Assembly (NCBI GenBank): GCA_965116885.1
Contig: OZ220741.1
Location: 5,056,001-5,120,000 of the forward strand
DNA from: Candidatus Latescibacterota bacterium
GTDB lineage: Bacteria > Latescibacterota > UBA2968
Length of the DNA stretch: 64,000 bases
Direction: 5' to 3'
Shown: in pieces, positions 42,001 through 51,000 of the stretch
Numbering within the stretch: position 1 is the stretch's first letter
How the letters are laid out: each line of letters begins with the position of its first letter
Program-made: the position numbers

Positions 42001-45000
42001 GTGTGGCGGGCCCTGCCGATCATCATGATCGCCATGCTGCTGGTTTCCCTGGTCGAATCGCTGCTGGTGCTGCCCAACCATCTGTCCCACCTGCACGGCC
42101 CGGAGTGGGTGCCGGCCAATGCCTTCGACCGGTTCTTCGCGCGGCTCCAAGGGCGCGTTGACGCGCTGCTGAACAGGTTCGTCCAAGGCCCGCTGGACCG
42201 GGCCCTGCAGTTCGCCACCGACCAGCCCGCGGTGACGATGTCGGGGGCTGTGGGAATGCTCGTGCTGAGCATCTCCCTATTGCCCGCGGGAATCGTTCCT
42301 ACCACGCTGGCCGCTGACGTGGAGGGGGATATCGCGACGGTCGTCCTGGAGATGCCCGATGGGGCGACCGCTCCGAGGACGTACGAAGTGGCCCAGGAAC
42401 TGGAGGCCGCCGGCCACCGGGTCATCGAACGACTCTCGCGCGACCGGCCCGGGGACGCGCCACCGCTGCTGACCGGCGTAACGGTGACCGTCGGACAGGG
42501 CTCGAGACTCGCGGGCGGGCTCAATCCGGAGCCGACCCTCAATCCGCAAGCCAACATCGCCACCATTGAGTTCAAACTCCTGGGCGCCCAACAGAGAGAA
42601 ATCTCCACCGGAGAGGTCGTGCAGGCATGGCGGGAAGAGGTGGGGGTGCTGCCCTACGTACGCGGCATCACCTTCAGCGGCGAGGCCTTCGACTTGGGCA
42701 ACCCGGTGGAGGTTGTGTTGTCGCATCCGGACCCGGAGCACCTTGCCCGGATTGCAAACTCCGTGGTCAATGGACTCCGCGGGGTGGGAGGCGTTTTCGA
42801 CATACGTTCAGACCACACCCCGGGCATCCCGGAAGTTCAACTCGGGTTGCGGCCAGAAGCGCGAACCCTCGGTCTCACACTCGACGATCTGGCCGGGCAG
42901 GCGCGAGCCGCATTCTTCGGCGCAGAGGCCATCCGGATACAGCGCGGTCGGGAGGAGGTCCGGGTCTATGTGCGCCTGCCCTCCGATGAACGAAAATCCA
43001 TCACCGATGTCGAAGGATACCTGCTCCGTACGCCGGGCGGGGCCGAGGTCCCGGTCCTGAGTGTGGCCTCCCTGAACCCGGGGGTGTCGCCGCCGGCCAT
43101 TCGACGGAAGGACGGCCAGCGCGTCGTCACGGTCACTGCGGACGTGGATGCTTCGGTGATTTCAGGCGACGAAGCCAACGACATCCTGACCAATTCGATC
43201 CTCGCGGATTTGACCACCCTGCACCCGGACCTGACATACAGCTTCGGAGGGGAACAACAACAGCAGCTCGAATCCCTGGATGCGCTGTATCGCGGATTTG
43301 CGATTGCCCTGCTCTTGATCTTCGCGCTGCTCGCCATCCCCCTCCGATCCTATACAAAGCCGTTCATCATCATGGCCGTCATCCCCTTCGGGTTCATCGG
43401 AGTGATCCTGGGGCACTGGGTCCTGGGAGTAGCTCTGAGTGCCGTATCTTTCATGGGTATCTTCGGCCTGAGTGGGGTGGTCGTGAACGATTCCCTGGTC
43501 ATGATCGATTTCATCGATCAGAGAATCGGAGAAGGTACCTTGGCAAGGACGGCGATCGTGGAGGGCGCCAAGGGGCGCTTTCGTCCGATCATGCTCACTT
43601 CCGTGACTACGTTCCTCGGCTTCACTCCCCTTATTCTGGAACGCGCCATCCAAGCCCAGTTCCTGATCCCCTTTGCCGCCTCGCTCGGTTGCGGCATTCT
43701 CTTTACTACGGCTATACTCATGATGATCGTTCCCGCACTTTACACCATCCATCTGCGTCTGATTGCTTCGCGGGGCCGTTCCGGCGCCGGTACCGGGTAA
43801 TGCACTTCATGATGCAGGGAGGCAGAAACCGATGGCTAATAATACCGAGGATTTGACGCCCCAATCGCTAAGTCTCACCGAAGAGCTCATCCTGATGCTC
43901 CTCAACGAGGAGACTGGCTACTTTCACCAGGTACCCGGCTGGCATTTGAACTGCGCCGTGGTCGGTGCCGTGCTCGCGGAGCTTTCACTCAGATCGCGCA
44001 TCGACACGGACCTGGAATCCCTGTTCCTCGTGGACGAGTCGGAAACGGGGAGACCTACCCTGGACCCCATTCTGAAAGAAATCGCAGCCGAATCTGTTCA
44101 ACGGAACGCCCAGTACTGGATCGAACGGCTCGCTCCCCGTGCGGAATCGATCATTGATTCAGTTCTGGACCGCCTGGTTGACCTGAAGATCCTGGAATAT
44201 CACGACGGTGAATTCTGGACACTGGCTCCTACCGTCTGGCGTGGGGAACTGTCCAGCAAGTCGGAAGAGGGCACTGCAGGCCAGTTCATAAAAACGCGGA
44301 TCAGCAAGGTCATCTTCACCGACGAGATTCCCGATCCGAGAGATGTCATCATTATCTGCCTCGTCAATACCTGCGATGTCTTTCGTTTCATATTCCAGCT
44401 CGACGACGAGGCGGAGGAGCGCATCGAGTTCATCTGCAAGATGGATCTGATCGGCCGCTCCCTGGCCTCTGCGGTCTCTCAGAACCTCGCTGGCCCAGCC
44501 CTCCGACGTCCTGCCCTTGCCAGAAAAATTCCGACGGTTTCGCTGCCCAAGCTGCTGCTGAACCCGCATAGTCGAGACGGCAACCTGAACGCGCTCTTCG
44601 GAAACCTTGCAGAGGAGTACGGTCCGGTGTTCCAGATCCGCCCTCCCTTCTCGAAGCCCATGATCTTCCTGGCCGGGCTCGAGACAAACCGCTGGGTGCA
44701 CAAGCGCGGGCGCATGTACCTGAGAGCCAGGGACTACTTCAGCGACTTCGAGAAGGTCTACGGCGCGTCCGGCGTCCTGCCCGCCCTGGACGGAGCCGAT
44801 CACTTCCGGCTTCGCCGGTCCCTGTCGCCCGCCTATTCTGCCGTGAGGCTGGGAGGGCAACTGGACCAGCTCTACAATCAGGGGCGCAAGTACATGGCGA
44901 GCTTGACTGTTGGGGACTCATACCGCGCCACGTCCATGTGCCGGGAGATGGTGAACGCCCAGCTCTCCCCACTGTTCATCGGCGTCGATACCCAGGACCT

Positions 45001-48000: not shown

Positions 48001-51000
48001 GCATCAGCGACATTCCTGATCCGTCGATTAGTTCGCAAGCCTGCTGATTCCGTCAAAGACATAAAGATCTCACCCTCAGAAGTTTTTTAAATGAGCTTGC
48101 CAGCCAGCTTGTTGCTCGAAAACCTATAAGCTATTTACGGCAGGTGGGCAAGGTGAAAGATTTTATATCCCAAATCCCCCGCGTCGGTGTTCAAACTTTA
48201 TTTGCGGGATGTCCTTAATATTGATTTTGAAAAAGAACCCCTTATTAAAACCCGCGGGATACCACGAAAACCGAGCCTCCCAACAGTGGAGGTCGCGGTA
48301 AAGCGATAGGCTTTGCGCCGAGATTTTGGCATCGGGCAGAACATCGATATTGATCGAATAGTCAATTCTTATGAATTGGCGAGGATTGATGCCAACATCT
48401 GCTTTGACCCAGGATGTTTTGCTCGTTGTATTGCCGAACCGCCGCATCGCAATATAGTGAGAAAGATTGAATCGCCACGGCTGGCTGGCACCGCCGAAAT
48501 CGCTGTACAGATCGCGTTCAAAGCCAAAATCTGCGCCATATCCCCCCCTGTATCCACCGCCATATCCAGCATCATACCCAGGATCGTATCCATCGGGGAG
48601 AGCGGACTGGACAACCATATTGCCTCGTCCACCTTGACCACCGGAAAAACGAAAATTGGAGGTAATGGTCAAGTTCTGCATGCGCGGATGAAAAAGCGAT
48701 CGCTGGCCTGTACTGTCATAGAGCGTATGGGTCATCGCAATGCGAACATCCACGCGGCGATCTGGTTTGAGAGACGCGCTGGTGCGAAGCGGACGCCATT
48801 TTTGCCTCGGTGCGTCAAAATTGTATCCCATTGACAGATTGAGAGTCGCCAGAGTAAAGCGACGCACATCGTCGTCGCGCTGAGTTTTGAGTTCAAAAGT
48901 ATTGCCGATATTAAAATTTATGCTGCGTCTGGCATCGTCCCATCTGCGATTGCCTCCAAAACCCATTGTTCCCTGAAAAATACTTCCCGATTGGTTGTAA
49001 TTGAAATTGATTCGAGGCTGAAAGCGATGCCGAATACCGCGCAACCGGCCGATTTGCGGTTGGAAAATGCCGTATAATGTCGTGCCCGAAGTCAGTGTCG
49101 CATTGTAAGACGTGCGGCGGGTTGTCGAATCGGTATCGCTATATATAAACTCTTCGCCAAAATTAAAGCCCGGTGTGAGATTCAGCCACCCCATGGGGCG
49201 GTGTTGGCTGTTGACTGTGACGCGGTTTTGAAGAGAGACGCGCTCCGTATTGGGTGCAGGATCGGGATTGCGCGCAAAGTTATTCGACAAGGTACTCGAA
49301 AAACCGTAATAAAAGGCGCGATACCACGGTCCCGTAACAGATGTGGGTTCATTACCTCCAAATATGCGGCGTCTGTTTTGCCGAAAGCTGAGACGAGGAA
49401 AGCCCTGAAAACTATTATTTTTTGTCCTTAGATCGCGGTAATACGTCAGACTACCGTCAATGCTACGCCCGGATTCTGTCCAGCGTTTGTCAAAAGAAAA
49501 ACTGGACCTCAGTTGCCGATTGAGATAGCGATAGAGATTATTGCTATTGCGTCGATCAAAGTTGGTACTGGTCGAAAACTGCCCGCTCCCCCTGATATTG
49601 GTCGTGGCGTTGAGGCGTTGCTGGTGTTGCAAATTAAAGCGCCAATTGTGAGCCGTAGCATCGCCAGAGGTATCGTGGTCGTATCCGATATCCATTGATC
49701 CACTGAATCGATTGCGTCTGGCATAGGCAAATCGCGATTCGAGCAAAAATCCACCGCGCTCACGCAAAGTACTCTTAACCGTGGCATCCCAGTATTCACT
49801 CGGTGCGAAATAATACCCCACATTGTGGACAAAAATGCCATCGCGGCTGTTGCTACCCACACCCGGCGTTAGCAATCCCGATTGCCGCCCGCGCTTGACT
49901 GGAAAAACGAAAAAAGGAACCCAGAAAACGGGAATCGGGCCAATGCGAAAAGTAACAGACCGTCCAATCGCTTTATCGTCTTGCAAAATACGCACATTTT
50001 TGCACAAAAAATCGTAGTGTACATGGTCGCGATCACAGGTACTCAAAGAGAGATCCAGAGCATTCAGCGCTTTTTGACCATCGAGTGCAATGCGGGCACC
50101 GCGATAGTGTTTGCGCTGATGTGACGCGCGTCCATCTCGCACCCTACCGCGTTCTGTATCCAGGTTATAGACCATGTACTCACCCGATATCTTTTCGCTA
50201 CCGCGGGTAAATTGGGGCGGTCCCACAGTTTTTGCTCCGGTGGAATCGGGCAATGCCCGTGCCGTAACGTGCCGCGTGTTTTGATCGTACGTAATATGAC
50301 CGGCTTTGAGTTGTAAATCGCGATAGCGCAAGGTGGCATTACCGATCAATTCGACGCGTCTGGTCTGTACGTAATAAACAACCTCGGCGGCGTCAAATGT
50401 TATGGAATCGCCAGCAGTTTTTTGCGGCAAAACGGGTTGGCACCATCCCGGCGTAATCGCAAATAGCAGGAACAAAACGAGCCACACGGCTTGTGTTTTA
50501 TTACGAGTCTTCATAATTTTAAAGTGTGTTGTGGATTTTGTGGAGTACAAACGTAAATTCGGGATTGGAAAAAGTCAACAGAGGCCCCACAGCGGAATCT
50601 GCTGGAATAATCTTTGCGTCATGCCCTGTACAAACAAGGGAATATCCCAGTTGTTCCGTTTTTATTGATATATTTCAGCGGAATCTGTATCTTTAGTTTT
50701 CGCAACAGATATGCGGACGTGGTGGAATTGGCAGACACGCCAGATTTAGGATCTGGTGGGGTAAAACCCGTGGGGGTTCGAGTCCCCCCGTCCGCACCAA
50801 AGAACAATCAGACGGTTCGAGGCTCAACGCCTTGAATCGCTGGCGCGAGAACTCCCTTTGGGGAGCTTTTTTATTTTTTTAACAGATCCGATAAGAACAA
50901 CGTGAAAGCGAGGAATTTGTGGCAGCATTTTTGAATCACGATCAAGTGCGAACAATTCGAGCGGAATTTGGCTCCCCTGTATATGTTTACGACCAGCGTA

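Follow-up and report, generated by a model that had tools for sequence, protein, structure and literature searches.

A horizontally acquired four-gene cassette with a sterol methyltransferase-family gene in a cyclase-less Latescibacterota genome, and its possible role in modifying exogenous sterols

Bacterial sterol methyltransferases (SMTs) and the fusion of a GPP34 domain to a cytochrome P450 have each been published already, the former as a clade by Brown et al. (2023; PMC10070321) and the latter in sponge symbionts (PMC11706023, 2025); we found no paper linking the two. The SMTs of sponge symbionts described by Brown et al. belong to the same protein family as the one discussed here, but their clusters serve de novo synthesis (SMO-OSC, CYP51, ERG24, sdmAB), and P450, Rieske or GPP34 proteins are not mentioned in the main text of that paper; methylation of host sterols was proposed there for a MAG of Chlamydiae that lacks sterol genes (PMC10070321). 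The steroid clusters of Kelly et al. (2022; PMC9531527), with a core of ERG24-CYP51-LSS, resemble our locus in that they are enriched in sponges, evolve under purifying selection and have spread by horizontal transfer over about 10 phyla, and SMT was found enriched in sponge MAGs. GPP34 was reported from 604 of 780 sponge-symbiont genomes, with expression of the genes, and its long form (GPP34 plus cytochrome P450, GPP34_L) as exclusive to sponge symbionts and present in 92.6% of 27 Latescibacterota symbiont genomes (PMC11706023).

The locus described here lies in a stretch of 64,000 nucleotides (the window) from a Latescibacterota genome consisting of 1 contig of 5,557,749 bp (98.36% complete). 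It comprises four genes, encoding an RND pump, a GPP34-P450 fusion, an SMT and a Rieske oxygenase. It thus differs from the clusters of Brown et al. (PMC10070321) in the partners of the SMT (GPP34-P450, a non-SdmA Rieske protein and an RND pump) and in the lack of a cyclase in the genome, and from those of Kelly et al. (PMC9531527) in having none of their three core genes and residing mostly in cyclase-less genomes. An earlier note had described a cluster of the last three genes (43832-48062), which is indeed intact, with all three frames open, but the unit extends beyond it to the RND pump gene and the whole block is mobile. This 7,739-bp block (40423..48161) is a recent, horizontally acquired insertion, because its GC content is 0.600 compared to 0.511 in the genome (0.59 is reached by 0.27% of 7.5-kb genome windows), it is bounded by 37-nt direct repeats of family D1 (40386..40422 and 48125..48161, 86% identical, spacing 7739), and the dtd-lptD site is empty in two congeners (L099 of genome G122 and L100 of G124), where some 65 bp containing a single repeat copy separate the dtd flank from the lptD flank. 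Homology to these cassette-free congeners stops at about 40420. Within the left end of the insertion, a dispersed 32-nt repeat (40447..40478) has 10 copies in its own genome (up to 4 mismatches); G122 and G124 each contain at least 40 matches to it.

All four cassette genes are under purifying selection (dN/dS 0.12-0.36), and the RND, P450 and SMT genes are co-directional and separated by 31 and 41 bp. A weak site resembling a promoter precedes the RND gene (40507..40535, plus strand) and is no evidence by itself, because the scan found 1 site where 2.9 are expected by chance. The convergent SMT and Rieske genes are separated by a GC-rich inverted repeat (46942..46973), which was read from the sequence and missed by the terminator scan and could possibly act as a two-way terminator. 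Neither a regulator gene nor a redox partner gene is found within the cassette.

The SMT-family methyltransferase (45907..46941, plus strand, 344 aa; Sterol_MT_C 53.9 bits, cut-off 21.7) also carries class-I methyltransferase domains and contains VIDVGCGVGAP, which we take to be its SAM motif. It is 43% identical over 295 aa (E 2.4e-70) to an SMT with reported activity on desmosterol (L033:4636-5670; PMC10070321), and this similarity, together with the presence of enzymes from sterol-linked families (Sterol_MT_C, KshA_C), favors a sterol as the probable substrate. The window protein belongs to a divergent cassette clade, separated from the copy with published activity by a branch of 1.49 changes per site, and its Region-I motif reads MVWGWG as opposed to YEFGWG in the active copy (alignment A1). 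The second SMT of L033 is a cassette-type ortholog (79-80% identical to the window SMT) which fits gene 2682229270 of "Nitrospira sp., coral reef 2 of 2", the contigs sharing gene order. This enzyme was assayed by Brown et al. (2023), who give the outcome in a figure and report 4 of their 24 SMTs as inactive on both desmosterol and 24-methylenecholesterol (PMC10070321); none of the sponge-metagenome contigs they tested is among our best 80 metagenome loci.

Searches of the genome for sterol synthesis genes bore out the earlier claim that it has no squalene/oxidosqualene cyclase and no squalene epoxidase. Profile searches with PF13243, PF13249 and PF08491 gave nothing above the cut-off, and tblastn with six real cyclases and one SMO-OSC fusion from other carriers gave no cyclase match; the best weak match proved to be a pectate-lyase ORF (Pec_lyase E 3.6e-81). 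In the same genome, tblastn revealed no ERG24 match and no CYP51 ortholog (best 26% identity), and sdmA/B and a flavoprotein present in 38 of 80 cassettes are absent as well. With cyclase, epoxidase, ERG24 and CYP51 all missing, the results support the view, also put forward earlier, that de novo sterol synthesis cannot be the role of the cluster in this organism. Cyclase counts in relatives were reproduced: the 20 other genomes of the genus have none, and 3 of 131 additional genomes from the class have a strong match (E < 1e-56). Among 42 large-contig genomes carrying the cassette (completeness not stated), 31 gave no cyclase match (E <= 0.001) and 8 have a full-length cyclase, which supports the cyclase-less state as the rule among carriers.

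Since the bacterium is unable to make sterols and the cassette is common to sponge bacteria, it probably edits sterols of the host or of neighbors, and we give a slightly better than even chance to the explanation that the acquired cassette modifies exogenous sterols, from the sponge host or sterol-making neighbors, and exports the product. In its favor also count the loci next to sterol-synthesis genes, the lipid transporters that go with the SMT, a carrier with neither cyclase nor SQS_PSY (see below) and the purifying selection on all four genes. The tailoring of host sterols proposed in the earlier note is thus supported in part, by the missing de novo route, the sponge association and the cyclase-less carriers. 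Counting against the modification of exogenous sterols are the Region-I motif, squalene genes of the genome and of nearly all carriers (see below), the exporter type of the pump and its missing adaptor and outer-membrane partner, the absence of the flavoprotein and of a redox partner, and the looser linkage in distant relatives.

The presence of an HpnC/HpnD/HpnE-like squalene trio, with no known use for its product, was confirmed. In Botryococcus, squalene is methylated by SMT-like enzymes, and the cassette might act on squalene made by the bacterium itself or on some other acyclic triterpenoid: the methyltransferase would methylate a terminal isopropylidene, chemically similar to the delta-24 bond of sterols, the oxygenases would functionalize the chain and the pump would deliver it to the outer membrane. 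The trio in a genome without a cyclase to consume its product, the divergent Region I and the long branch to the sterol-active SMT all fit this explanation. SQS_PSY genes occur in 41 of the 42 carriers, which makes squalene from the bacterium itself a candidate substrate, but this count is weak because PF00494 also covers phytoene synthases, and one carrier (G040, 1.5 Mb, locus L082) has the cassette with neither cyclase nor SQS_PSY. Moreover, HpnC/D/E-like genes adjoin the cassette in none of 80 loci, compared to 4 (L030, L033, L034, L050) where it adjoins CYP51, ERG24, sdmA/B-like genes or an SMO-OSC fusion, and polycyclic substrates are suggested by the KshA_C family and by the transporters with sterol-sensing domains. 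We regard a squalene-type substrate as unlikely.

The GPP34-P450 fusion (43832..45865, plus strand, 677 aa; GPP34 E 1.3e-28, p450 E 4.6e-34) starts at an ATG preceded by a GGGAGG ribosome-binding site and is composed of GPP34 (residues ~15-216) and P450 (~255-677) domains, the same two-domain architecture as GPP34_L (PMC11706023). The genome encodes three such fusions and one short GPP34. The protein contains GTHKCLG, with the haem cysteine, and ExxR, presumably the catalytic motifs of the P450. In PMC11706023, where flanking genes were analyzed only for the short GPP34 of Actinobacteriota, GPP34 proteins, the GPP34-P450 form included, are interpreted as secreted effectors that bind host PI4P and block phagosome maturation; this would make the SMT, Rieske and pump genes neighbors without a common task. 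Its strength is the wide, expressed and sponge-specific occurrence cited above, but no signal peptide is evident at the N-terminus of the fusion (sequence read by eye), a P450 requires haem and bacterial redox partners, and the tight, co-directional arrangement with the RND and SMT genes as well as a linkage to SMT, Rieske and transporter genes kept in over 10 phyla, at identities of 58-97%, argue for a joint function. Sterols and methyltransferases have no mention in the main text of PMC11706023, so the linkage was not weighed there. The effector explanation has a very small chance for this locus, and the linkage points to a probable lipid-modifying enzyme. GPP34+Rieske fusions in two sponge-symbiont genomes (PMC11706023) fit GPP34 as an add-on to lipid oxygenases.

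The predicted structure of the fusion (pLDDT 81.8, pTM 0.75) has the CYP51 of M. capsulatus as its top fold match (6mcw, E 1.6e-15, 20% identity), with CYP184A1 and BM3 about level. By sequence, CYP51 is also the best match of the P450, over the C-terminal half (E 6.7e-18, 20% identity). The cassette could alternatively perform late steps of a shared synthesis for the bacterium's own membrane, on a cyclized intermediate (lanosterol, cycloartenol) from cyclase-bearing neighbors or a non-homologous cyclase of unfamiliar kind. ERG24-CYP51-LSS clusters in 115 of 537 Ircinia MAGs (PMC9531527) mean that donors are at hand, and the CYP51 matches would fit. The distance to CYP51 and the lack of ERG24 and sdmA/B, which leaves the demethylation steps missing, make this quite improbable.

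The Rieske/KshA_C non-haem iron oxygenase (46974..48062, minus strand, 362 aa; Rieske E 2.1e-17, KshA_C E 1.5e-21) matches positions 2-207 of the 207 of the KshA_C profile and contains CPH...CPFH and ExxxDxxHxxxxH, which we take to be the catalytic and iron ligand motifs. While both domains uphold the earlier assignment to Rieske/KshA-type oxygenases, the likeness to SdmA was rejected (32.7 bits, cut-off 600; a true SdmA-like neighbor in L033 scores 414.7). The best solved relative is KshA (E 5.5e-23), over the N-terminal half only, and no sdmB or KstD partner lies nearby; the nearest named Atlas clusters are auto-labeled "cholesterol 7-desaturase," which is a lead only. Nematodes obtain sterols from their diet and possess the SMT-like STRM-1. 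By enzyme class, DAF-36 (Rieske), DAF-9 (P450) and STRM-1 (methyltransferase), all acting on sterols, resemble the cassette (PMC4749721). However, these genes are eukaryotic, unlinked and hormonal in role, and STRM-1 methylates C-4 rather than the side chain.

The first gene encodes an AcrB/HAE1-type RND permease (40606..43800, plus strand, 1064 aa; ACR_tran E 3.2e-160), whose closest matches among solved proteins are multidrug pumps of the RND type (E 2.4e-71). Its immediate neighbors in the window include neither an adaptor nor an outer-membrane gene, but an orphan HlyD-type adaptor (MFP) running off the window end (63141..64000, minus strand; L096:3142-4461:-) is 78% identical to the adaptor preceding the RND gene in L012. 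In 65 of 80 loci, the SMT is found together with some lipid transporter of the RND superfamily, whose type varies by lineage: AcrB-type in 42 (64-95% identical to the window copy), an MMPL carrying a sterol-sensing domain in 11 that all belong to Chloroflexota, and a second, HpnN-like MMPL in 12. The MMPL transporters of Chloroflexota and other cassettes carry Sterol-sensing/Patched domains and match HAE3, HpnN and, weakly, BstA models, although every score is below the curated cut-offs, and the window's AcrB/Mdt-like pump resembles neither HpnN nor BstA.

The pump is built like an exporter, and no importer was identified. The cassette might also be a defense against membrane-active steroids of host or neighbors, in which the enzymes disarm them, a tripartite pump expels them and the products are of no use to the bacterium. 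Between 14 and 22 of 80 loci show an OMF-MFP-RND exporter encoded in one direction with the P450 and the SMT, which agrees with this, as do the mobility of the cassette and its patchy, accessory distribution (7 of 20 congeners). Yet C-methylation by SAM would be an unusual detoxification step, the cassette has no regulator, and in Nitrospirales it is located beside a de novo sterol cluster; we consider defense rather unlikely. If, as we favor, exogenous sterols are modified, a sterol with an unsaturated side chain would first partition into the cell envelope and then be alkylated by the SAM-dependent SMT, the side chain being the presumed position, after which the P450 and the Rieske oxygenase would desaturate or hydroxylate it. 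The N-terminal, lipid-binding GPP34 domain would hold the P450 at the cytoplasmic membrane, replacing the membrane anchor of eukaryotic sterol P450s. Finally, the RND pump would transfer the product to the outer membrane or export it from the cell, as might a full OMF-MFP-RND system or an HpnN-like MMPL transporter with sterol-sensing domain in relatives.

The cassette recurs in more than 10 phyla with SMT identities of 72-96%. A GPP34-P450 of any type is found within 10 kb of the SMT in 75 of the 80 nearest loci, and an ortholog (at least 55% identity) in 65. Linkage is looser in distant relatives, where 30 metagenome loci with full 6-kb flanks contained GPP34-P450 in 14, Rieske in 10 and a transporter in 12 cases. 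Carriers with a named source come from sponge or coral metagenomes. The sponge association, previously based on lineage, now extends to the window itself, which is present in runs labeled "sponge metagenome" from 4 DNA studies; its metagenome relatives all belong to a small number of contig series, and a paper names four of these as demosponge metagenomes. The window also encodes eukaryote-like proteins and sulfatases, consistent with a sponge setting.

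The earlier note had described a cluster of three genes at 43832-48062, and these genes are real and intact, since their motifs are legible in the translations; the extent did not hold, as it leaves out the gene of an AcrB-type RND permease of 1064 amino acids (40606-43800, plus strand; ACR_tran E 3.2e-160) that begins the block. The permease gene is followed on the same strand by a fusion of GPP34 and cytochrome P450 (43832-45865, 677 aa), whose ATG is preceded by GGGAGG, and by an SMT-family methyltransferase (45907-46941, 344 aa), with intergenic gaps of only 31 and 41 bp, while an oxygenase of 362 aa with Rieske and KshA_C domains (46974-48062) is encoded on the minus strand, a GC-rich inverted repeat lying where the convergent SMT and Rieske genes meet. 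The translations contain recognizable haem-Cys, ExxR, Rieske Cys/His, non-haem iron and SAM motifs. Scans for promoters (1 site, 2.9 expected by chance) and terminators (6 sites, 6.4 expected by chance) provide no evidence on transcription units. Contigs from RNA libraries of three studies map to the genes of the RND pump, the P450 and the SMT and to a portion of the Rieske gene, which by itself is not proof of transcription.

The block lies between dtd (39908-40363, minus strand), which is 243 bp upstream of the RND gene, and lptD (48163-50550, minus strand). Its GC content is 0.600, compared to 0.511 for the genome (sd 0.026, 7.5-kb windows), and only 0.27% of 7.5-kb genome windows reach 0.59. 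A pair of 37-nt direct repeats (40386-40422 and 48125-48161, 86% identical) brackets it, and two genomes of the same genus that lack the SMT (G122 and G124) match the dtd flank up to ~40420 and the lptD flank again from 48162, the flanks being separated there by ~65 bp with a single copy of the repeat. From the direct repeats and these empty sites the insertion is 40423-48161, i.e., 7,739 bp, and no integrase is encoded inside it. The cassette occupies the same site in the related loci L007, L012 and L014, of which the latter two carry an extra HlyD-type adaptor gene ahead of the pump. Just inside the left end lies a 32-nt dispersed repeat (40447-40478), of which this genome has 10 copies (at most 4 mismatches) and two congeners have at least 40 matches each. 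The precise insertion site together with the empty sites of congeners offers a natural comparison, with and without the cassette, within one genus.

The methyltransferase matches Sterol_MT_C at residues 291-352 of a 353-aa reading (53.9 bits, Pfam cut-off 21.7), and matches to Methyltransf_11/25/31 and CMAS assign it to the class-I SAM-binding fold; the SAM motif VIDVGCGVGAP is conserved across our SMT alignment (A1), and Region III (YAIESTCHAP) is retained. Homology extends over the full length to an SMT encoded on the Nitrospirales contig L033 (4636-5670), at 43% identity over 295 aa (E 2.4e-70). Region I, the sterol-binding motif YExGWG of SMTs, has a different form in the cassette clade, FM(V/T/M)(W/Y/F)GWG, compared to FYEFGWG in the clade of the L033 enzyme. 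Because MVWGWG in the window thus replaces YEFGWG of the active type, the regiochemistry or the substrate of the cassette SMT may differ from that of the latter.

At 70,077 bp, L033 is as long as the contig that Brown et al. (2023) list as “Nitrospira sp., coral reef,” and the two agree in gene order (CYP51, ERG24, sdmA-like, sdmB-like, SMT, flavoprotein, outer-membrane barrel, Rieske, SMT, GPP34-P450); the cassette-type SMT of L033 is therefore their gene 2682229270 (“2 of 2”), the copy at 4636-5670 being “1 of 2.” The latter produced (epi)codisterol from desmosterol, and “2 of 2,” which has 35.6% identity to ERG6, was also among the SMTs assayed (Brown et al., 2023, PMC10070321). Those authors proposed methylation of host sterols for a Chlamydiae MAG, and their text does not mention P450, Rieske or GPP34 (PMC10070321).

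The P450 part of the fusion could not be assigned to a specific CYP family by searches of PDB sequences, Foldseek, NCBIfam or the Atlas. Its best match in sequence and fold, the CYP51 of Methylococcus, is only 20% identical and on a par with CYP184A1 and BM3. CYP51 itself was considered and rejected, as the best match to a solved CYP51 (E 6.7e-18) covers residues 429-674 only; the true CYP51-like genes of three related loci (L030, L033 and L034) form a cluster separate from the cassette P450. With GPP34 at the N-terminus and P450 at the C-terminus of one reading frame, and with its occurrence in sponge metagenome runs, the protein belongs to the GPP34_L family as defined in PMC11706023. That paper regards such fusions as confined to sponge symbionts and proposes that they act as secreted effectors that bind PI4P; its main text mentions neither sterol nor methyltransferase.

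For the Rieske protein, the KshA-type assignment in the earlier note was borne out, whereas its likeness to SdmA was not: the protein scores 32.7 bits on NF052579 (cut-off 600), compared to 414.7 bits for the sdmA-like gene of L033 (2395-3522). It combines a [2Fe-2S] Rieske domain with KshA_C and displays CPH...CPFH and ExxxDxxHxxxxH, the Rieske and iron-ligand motifs. Its solved relatives are KshA proteins, matched in the N-terminal half, and its nearest named Atlas clusters carry the automatic label cholesterol 7-desaturase, which is a lead only.

The genome (one contig, 5.56 Mb, 98.36% complete) yielded nothing above cut-off for PF13243, PF13249 and PF08491, and no cyclase was found by tblastn when six full-length cyclases and one SMO-OSC fusion of other cassette carriers served as queries, in agreement with the absence of cyclase and squalene epoxidase reported before; the sole weak cyclase-like hit (C1:1544290-1544646) is a pectate lyase. 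ERG24 had no tblastn match in the genome, and the best matches for CYP51 were P450s of 26% identity, so that the set expected of a de novo bacterial sterol cluster (oxidosqualene cyclase, squalene epoxidase, CYP51, ERG24) was not found here. The HpnC/HpnD/HpnE-like trio reported before is indeed present (G000:C1:823824-827579, locus L097; a pair of adjoining SQS_PSY genes with one for an amine-oxidase flavoprotein), and squalene is therefore probably made, though without a known consumer. Our counts for the cyclase likewise reproduce the earlier ones, with none in any of the 20 other genomes that represent the genus and strong matches in 3 of 131 others of the class.

The same pattern prevails among 42 carriers whose locus is on a contig of 1.5 Mb or more (two other loci of this class lie outside the sample). 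PF13243 had no match at E ≤ 0.001 in 31 of them, genome completeness not being given for this count. Full-length cyclase-type ORFs occur in eight, three of which are of the type of SMO-OSC fusions (1200-1269 aa, including a cyclase C-domain; G012:C4:60282-61259, G017:C1:119587-120561 and G037:C1:1536964-1537941), the one in G017 located ~12 kb from the cassette SMT. SQS_PSY is found in 41 of the 42, but the family takes in phytoene synthases and is thus uninformative on squalene as a substrate; the remaining carrier, G040, has neither cyclase nor SQS_PSY.

SMT relatives are widespread: of 8,000 scored candidates more than 2,000 reach E ≤ 1e-20, and relatives occur in 549 species genomes. The 80 nearest loci (72-96% identical) bear titles of Latescibacterota, Gemmatimonadota, Chloroflexota, Nitrospirota, Nitrospinota, Rhodothermales, Acidobacteriota, Actinomycetota, Binatia, Thermodesulfobacteriota, and Alpha- and Gammaproteobacteria, and only three of them share the housekeeping flanks of the window. 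Within 10 kb of the SMT, 65 of these 80 loci encode a GPP34-P450 ortholog (at least 55% identity) and 10 additional ones a paralog (40-46%), 67 a Rieske ortholog, 65 any RND-superfamily transporter, 22 an HlyD-type adaptor (MFP), 14 an outer-membrane factor (OMF), and four have de novo sterol genes. A FAD amine-oxidase-like gene of 454-462 aa is a neighbor in 38 loci (L012:11109-12473, L026:13252-14640 and 36 others); its match to a known family is confined to the first ~50 residues, and it is absent from the genome studied here. The type of transporter tracks lineage and SMT subtree (AcrB-type in 42 loci, MMPL with a Sterol-sensing/Patched domain in 11, all Chloroflexota, and a second, HpnN-like MMPL in 12). 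More distant relatives show looser linkage: of 30 metagenome loci with complete 6-kb flanks, 14 have a GPP34-P450 gene, 10 a Rieske gene and 12 a transporter gene.

In a quick IQ-TREE maximum likelihood tree the SMTs of the cassette group in a shallow clade, whose branch to the other bacterial SMT type measures 1.49 changes per site, and phylum labels change 25 times, compared to a minimum possible of 12. The cassette-type SMT (at least 75% identity) is found in 25 of 168 species genomes of the phylum and in seven of 20 congeners. All four genes show dN/dS of 0.12-0.36. P450 and SMT differ from those of L008, a locus with no common flanks, by a dS of 0.06-0.10, which is exceeded by the housekeeping genes compared to the same-genus locus L007 (0.15-0.31). 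With a dS of 0.78 for the Rieske gene against L008, the cassette itself is a mosaic; this comparison involved L008, L029 and L009 against the window.

Taken together, we lean slightly towards a cassette that would edit exogenous sterols with its enzymes and then export the product. The enzyme families are linked to sterols, most carriers lack a cyclase and G040 lacks SQS_PSY as well, sterol genes adjoin the cassette in four of the 80 loci and squalene genes in none, and the lipid transporters are matched to lineage. Against sterol editing we count the altered Region I motif, the near-universal SQS_PSY in carriers and a transport system that would serve export only. It is a more doubtful, if possible, proposition that sponge microbiomes have a mobile cassette of this kind in common, with which members of many phyla, mostly not sterol makers themselves, alkylate and oxidize host sterols and export the products. 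The nearest parallel in function is the nematode trio DAF-36, DAF-9 and STRM-1. No paper uniting SMT, GPP34-P450, Rieske and RND genes as one unit was found in a search that covered journals outside subscription. According to PMC9531527, 115 of 537 Ircinia MAGs contain ERG24-CYP51-LSS clusters.

If sterol editing is correct, part of the odd side-chain diversity of sponge sterols could stem from bacterial modification of host sterols. Side-chain-alkylated steranes serve as markers of early animals, and the debate hinges on which organisms make such sterols; the derived biomarkers could likewise reflect editing rather than de novo synthesis by either partner. A transferable cassette dependent on a sterol supply alone, and not on a cyclase, would enlarge the set of bacteria shaping the sponge sterol pool, and gene-cluster criteria based on cyclases would be too narrow. 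GPP34-P450 fusions are the most sponge-specific bacterial protein architecture so far described, and they would gain a testable enzymatic role as membrane-tethered sterol oxygenases rather than phagosome effectors. Candidates for transport are thereby named as well, in the form of AcrB-type pumps and of transporters that contain a sterol-sensing domain.

At least half of the sampled words of 40606-50550 are present in 14 runs, the openly labeled ones being “sponge metagenome” from four DNA studies, and six RNA-library runs contain 20-32% of them. In the JGI metagenome collection, the best 80 of 90 SMT relatives lie on ten contig series, four of which are Petrosia, Sarcotragus and Aplysina metagenomes (Brown et al., 2023, Supplementary Table 4, PMC10070321). 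The sponge contigs tested by Brown et al. (checked: Ga0209021_1000146, JGIcombinedJ30088_10000835, LXNJ01000389, LXNJ01004423, LXNJ01014139, LXNJ01003202 and LXNI01004480) are not among these best 80 of 90, which is no proof of difference. Elsewhere in the window, eukaryote-like proteins are encoded side by side at 3639-13562 (a 1108-aa WD40-repeat protein and a 2186-aa fn3/cadherin/CARDB protein), sulfatases at 25756-27243 and 28479-30275, and a patatin-like phospholipase fused to an Omp85-type barrel at 18574-20886, beside an Omp85-domain protein (15484-16926) and several ORFs without Pfam match.

The pump does not form a tripartite HAE1 RND system at this locus, as the permease has neither MFP nor OMF adjacent. 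An orphan HlyD-type adaptor that begins at 63141 and runs past the window end at 64000 (L096:3142-4461), between moaE and a DUF2961 gene, is 78% identical to the adaptor preceding the pump of L012 and lies 15 kb from the adaptor-less cassette pump. A further lipid-handling locus of the genome (L094, G000:C1:3150000-3169999) combines an MFP (79% identity to the cassette-type one of L012), an RND permease (60% to the pump of the cassette) and an MMPL (53% to that of other SMT cassettes) with a P450, a LolA-like protein, DUF1302 and two MpaB/Lcp-type oxygenases.

Two more GPP34-P450 fusions of this genome, 35% identical to that of the cassette, are each immediately followed by a Sulfotransfer_3 gene (L092:8539-11642, G000:C1:600538-603641, and L093:7162-10295, G000:C1:4410161-4413294). 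These pairs hint at lipid hydroxylation followed by sulfation, and the sulfotransferase genes behind both fusions suggest that the family is used in several lipid-modifying routes. A small methyltransferase, a GFO/IDH oxidoreductase, a PhyH dioxygenase and an inositol-monophosphatase/CysQ-like gene are located near the L092 pair, and large LRR proteins flank that of L093.
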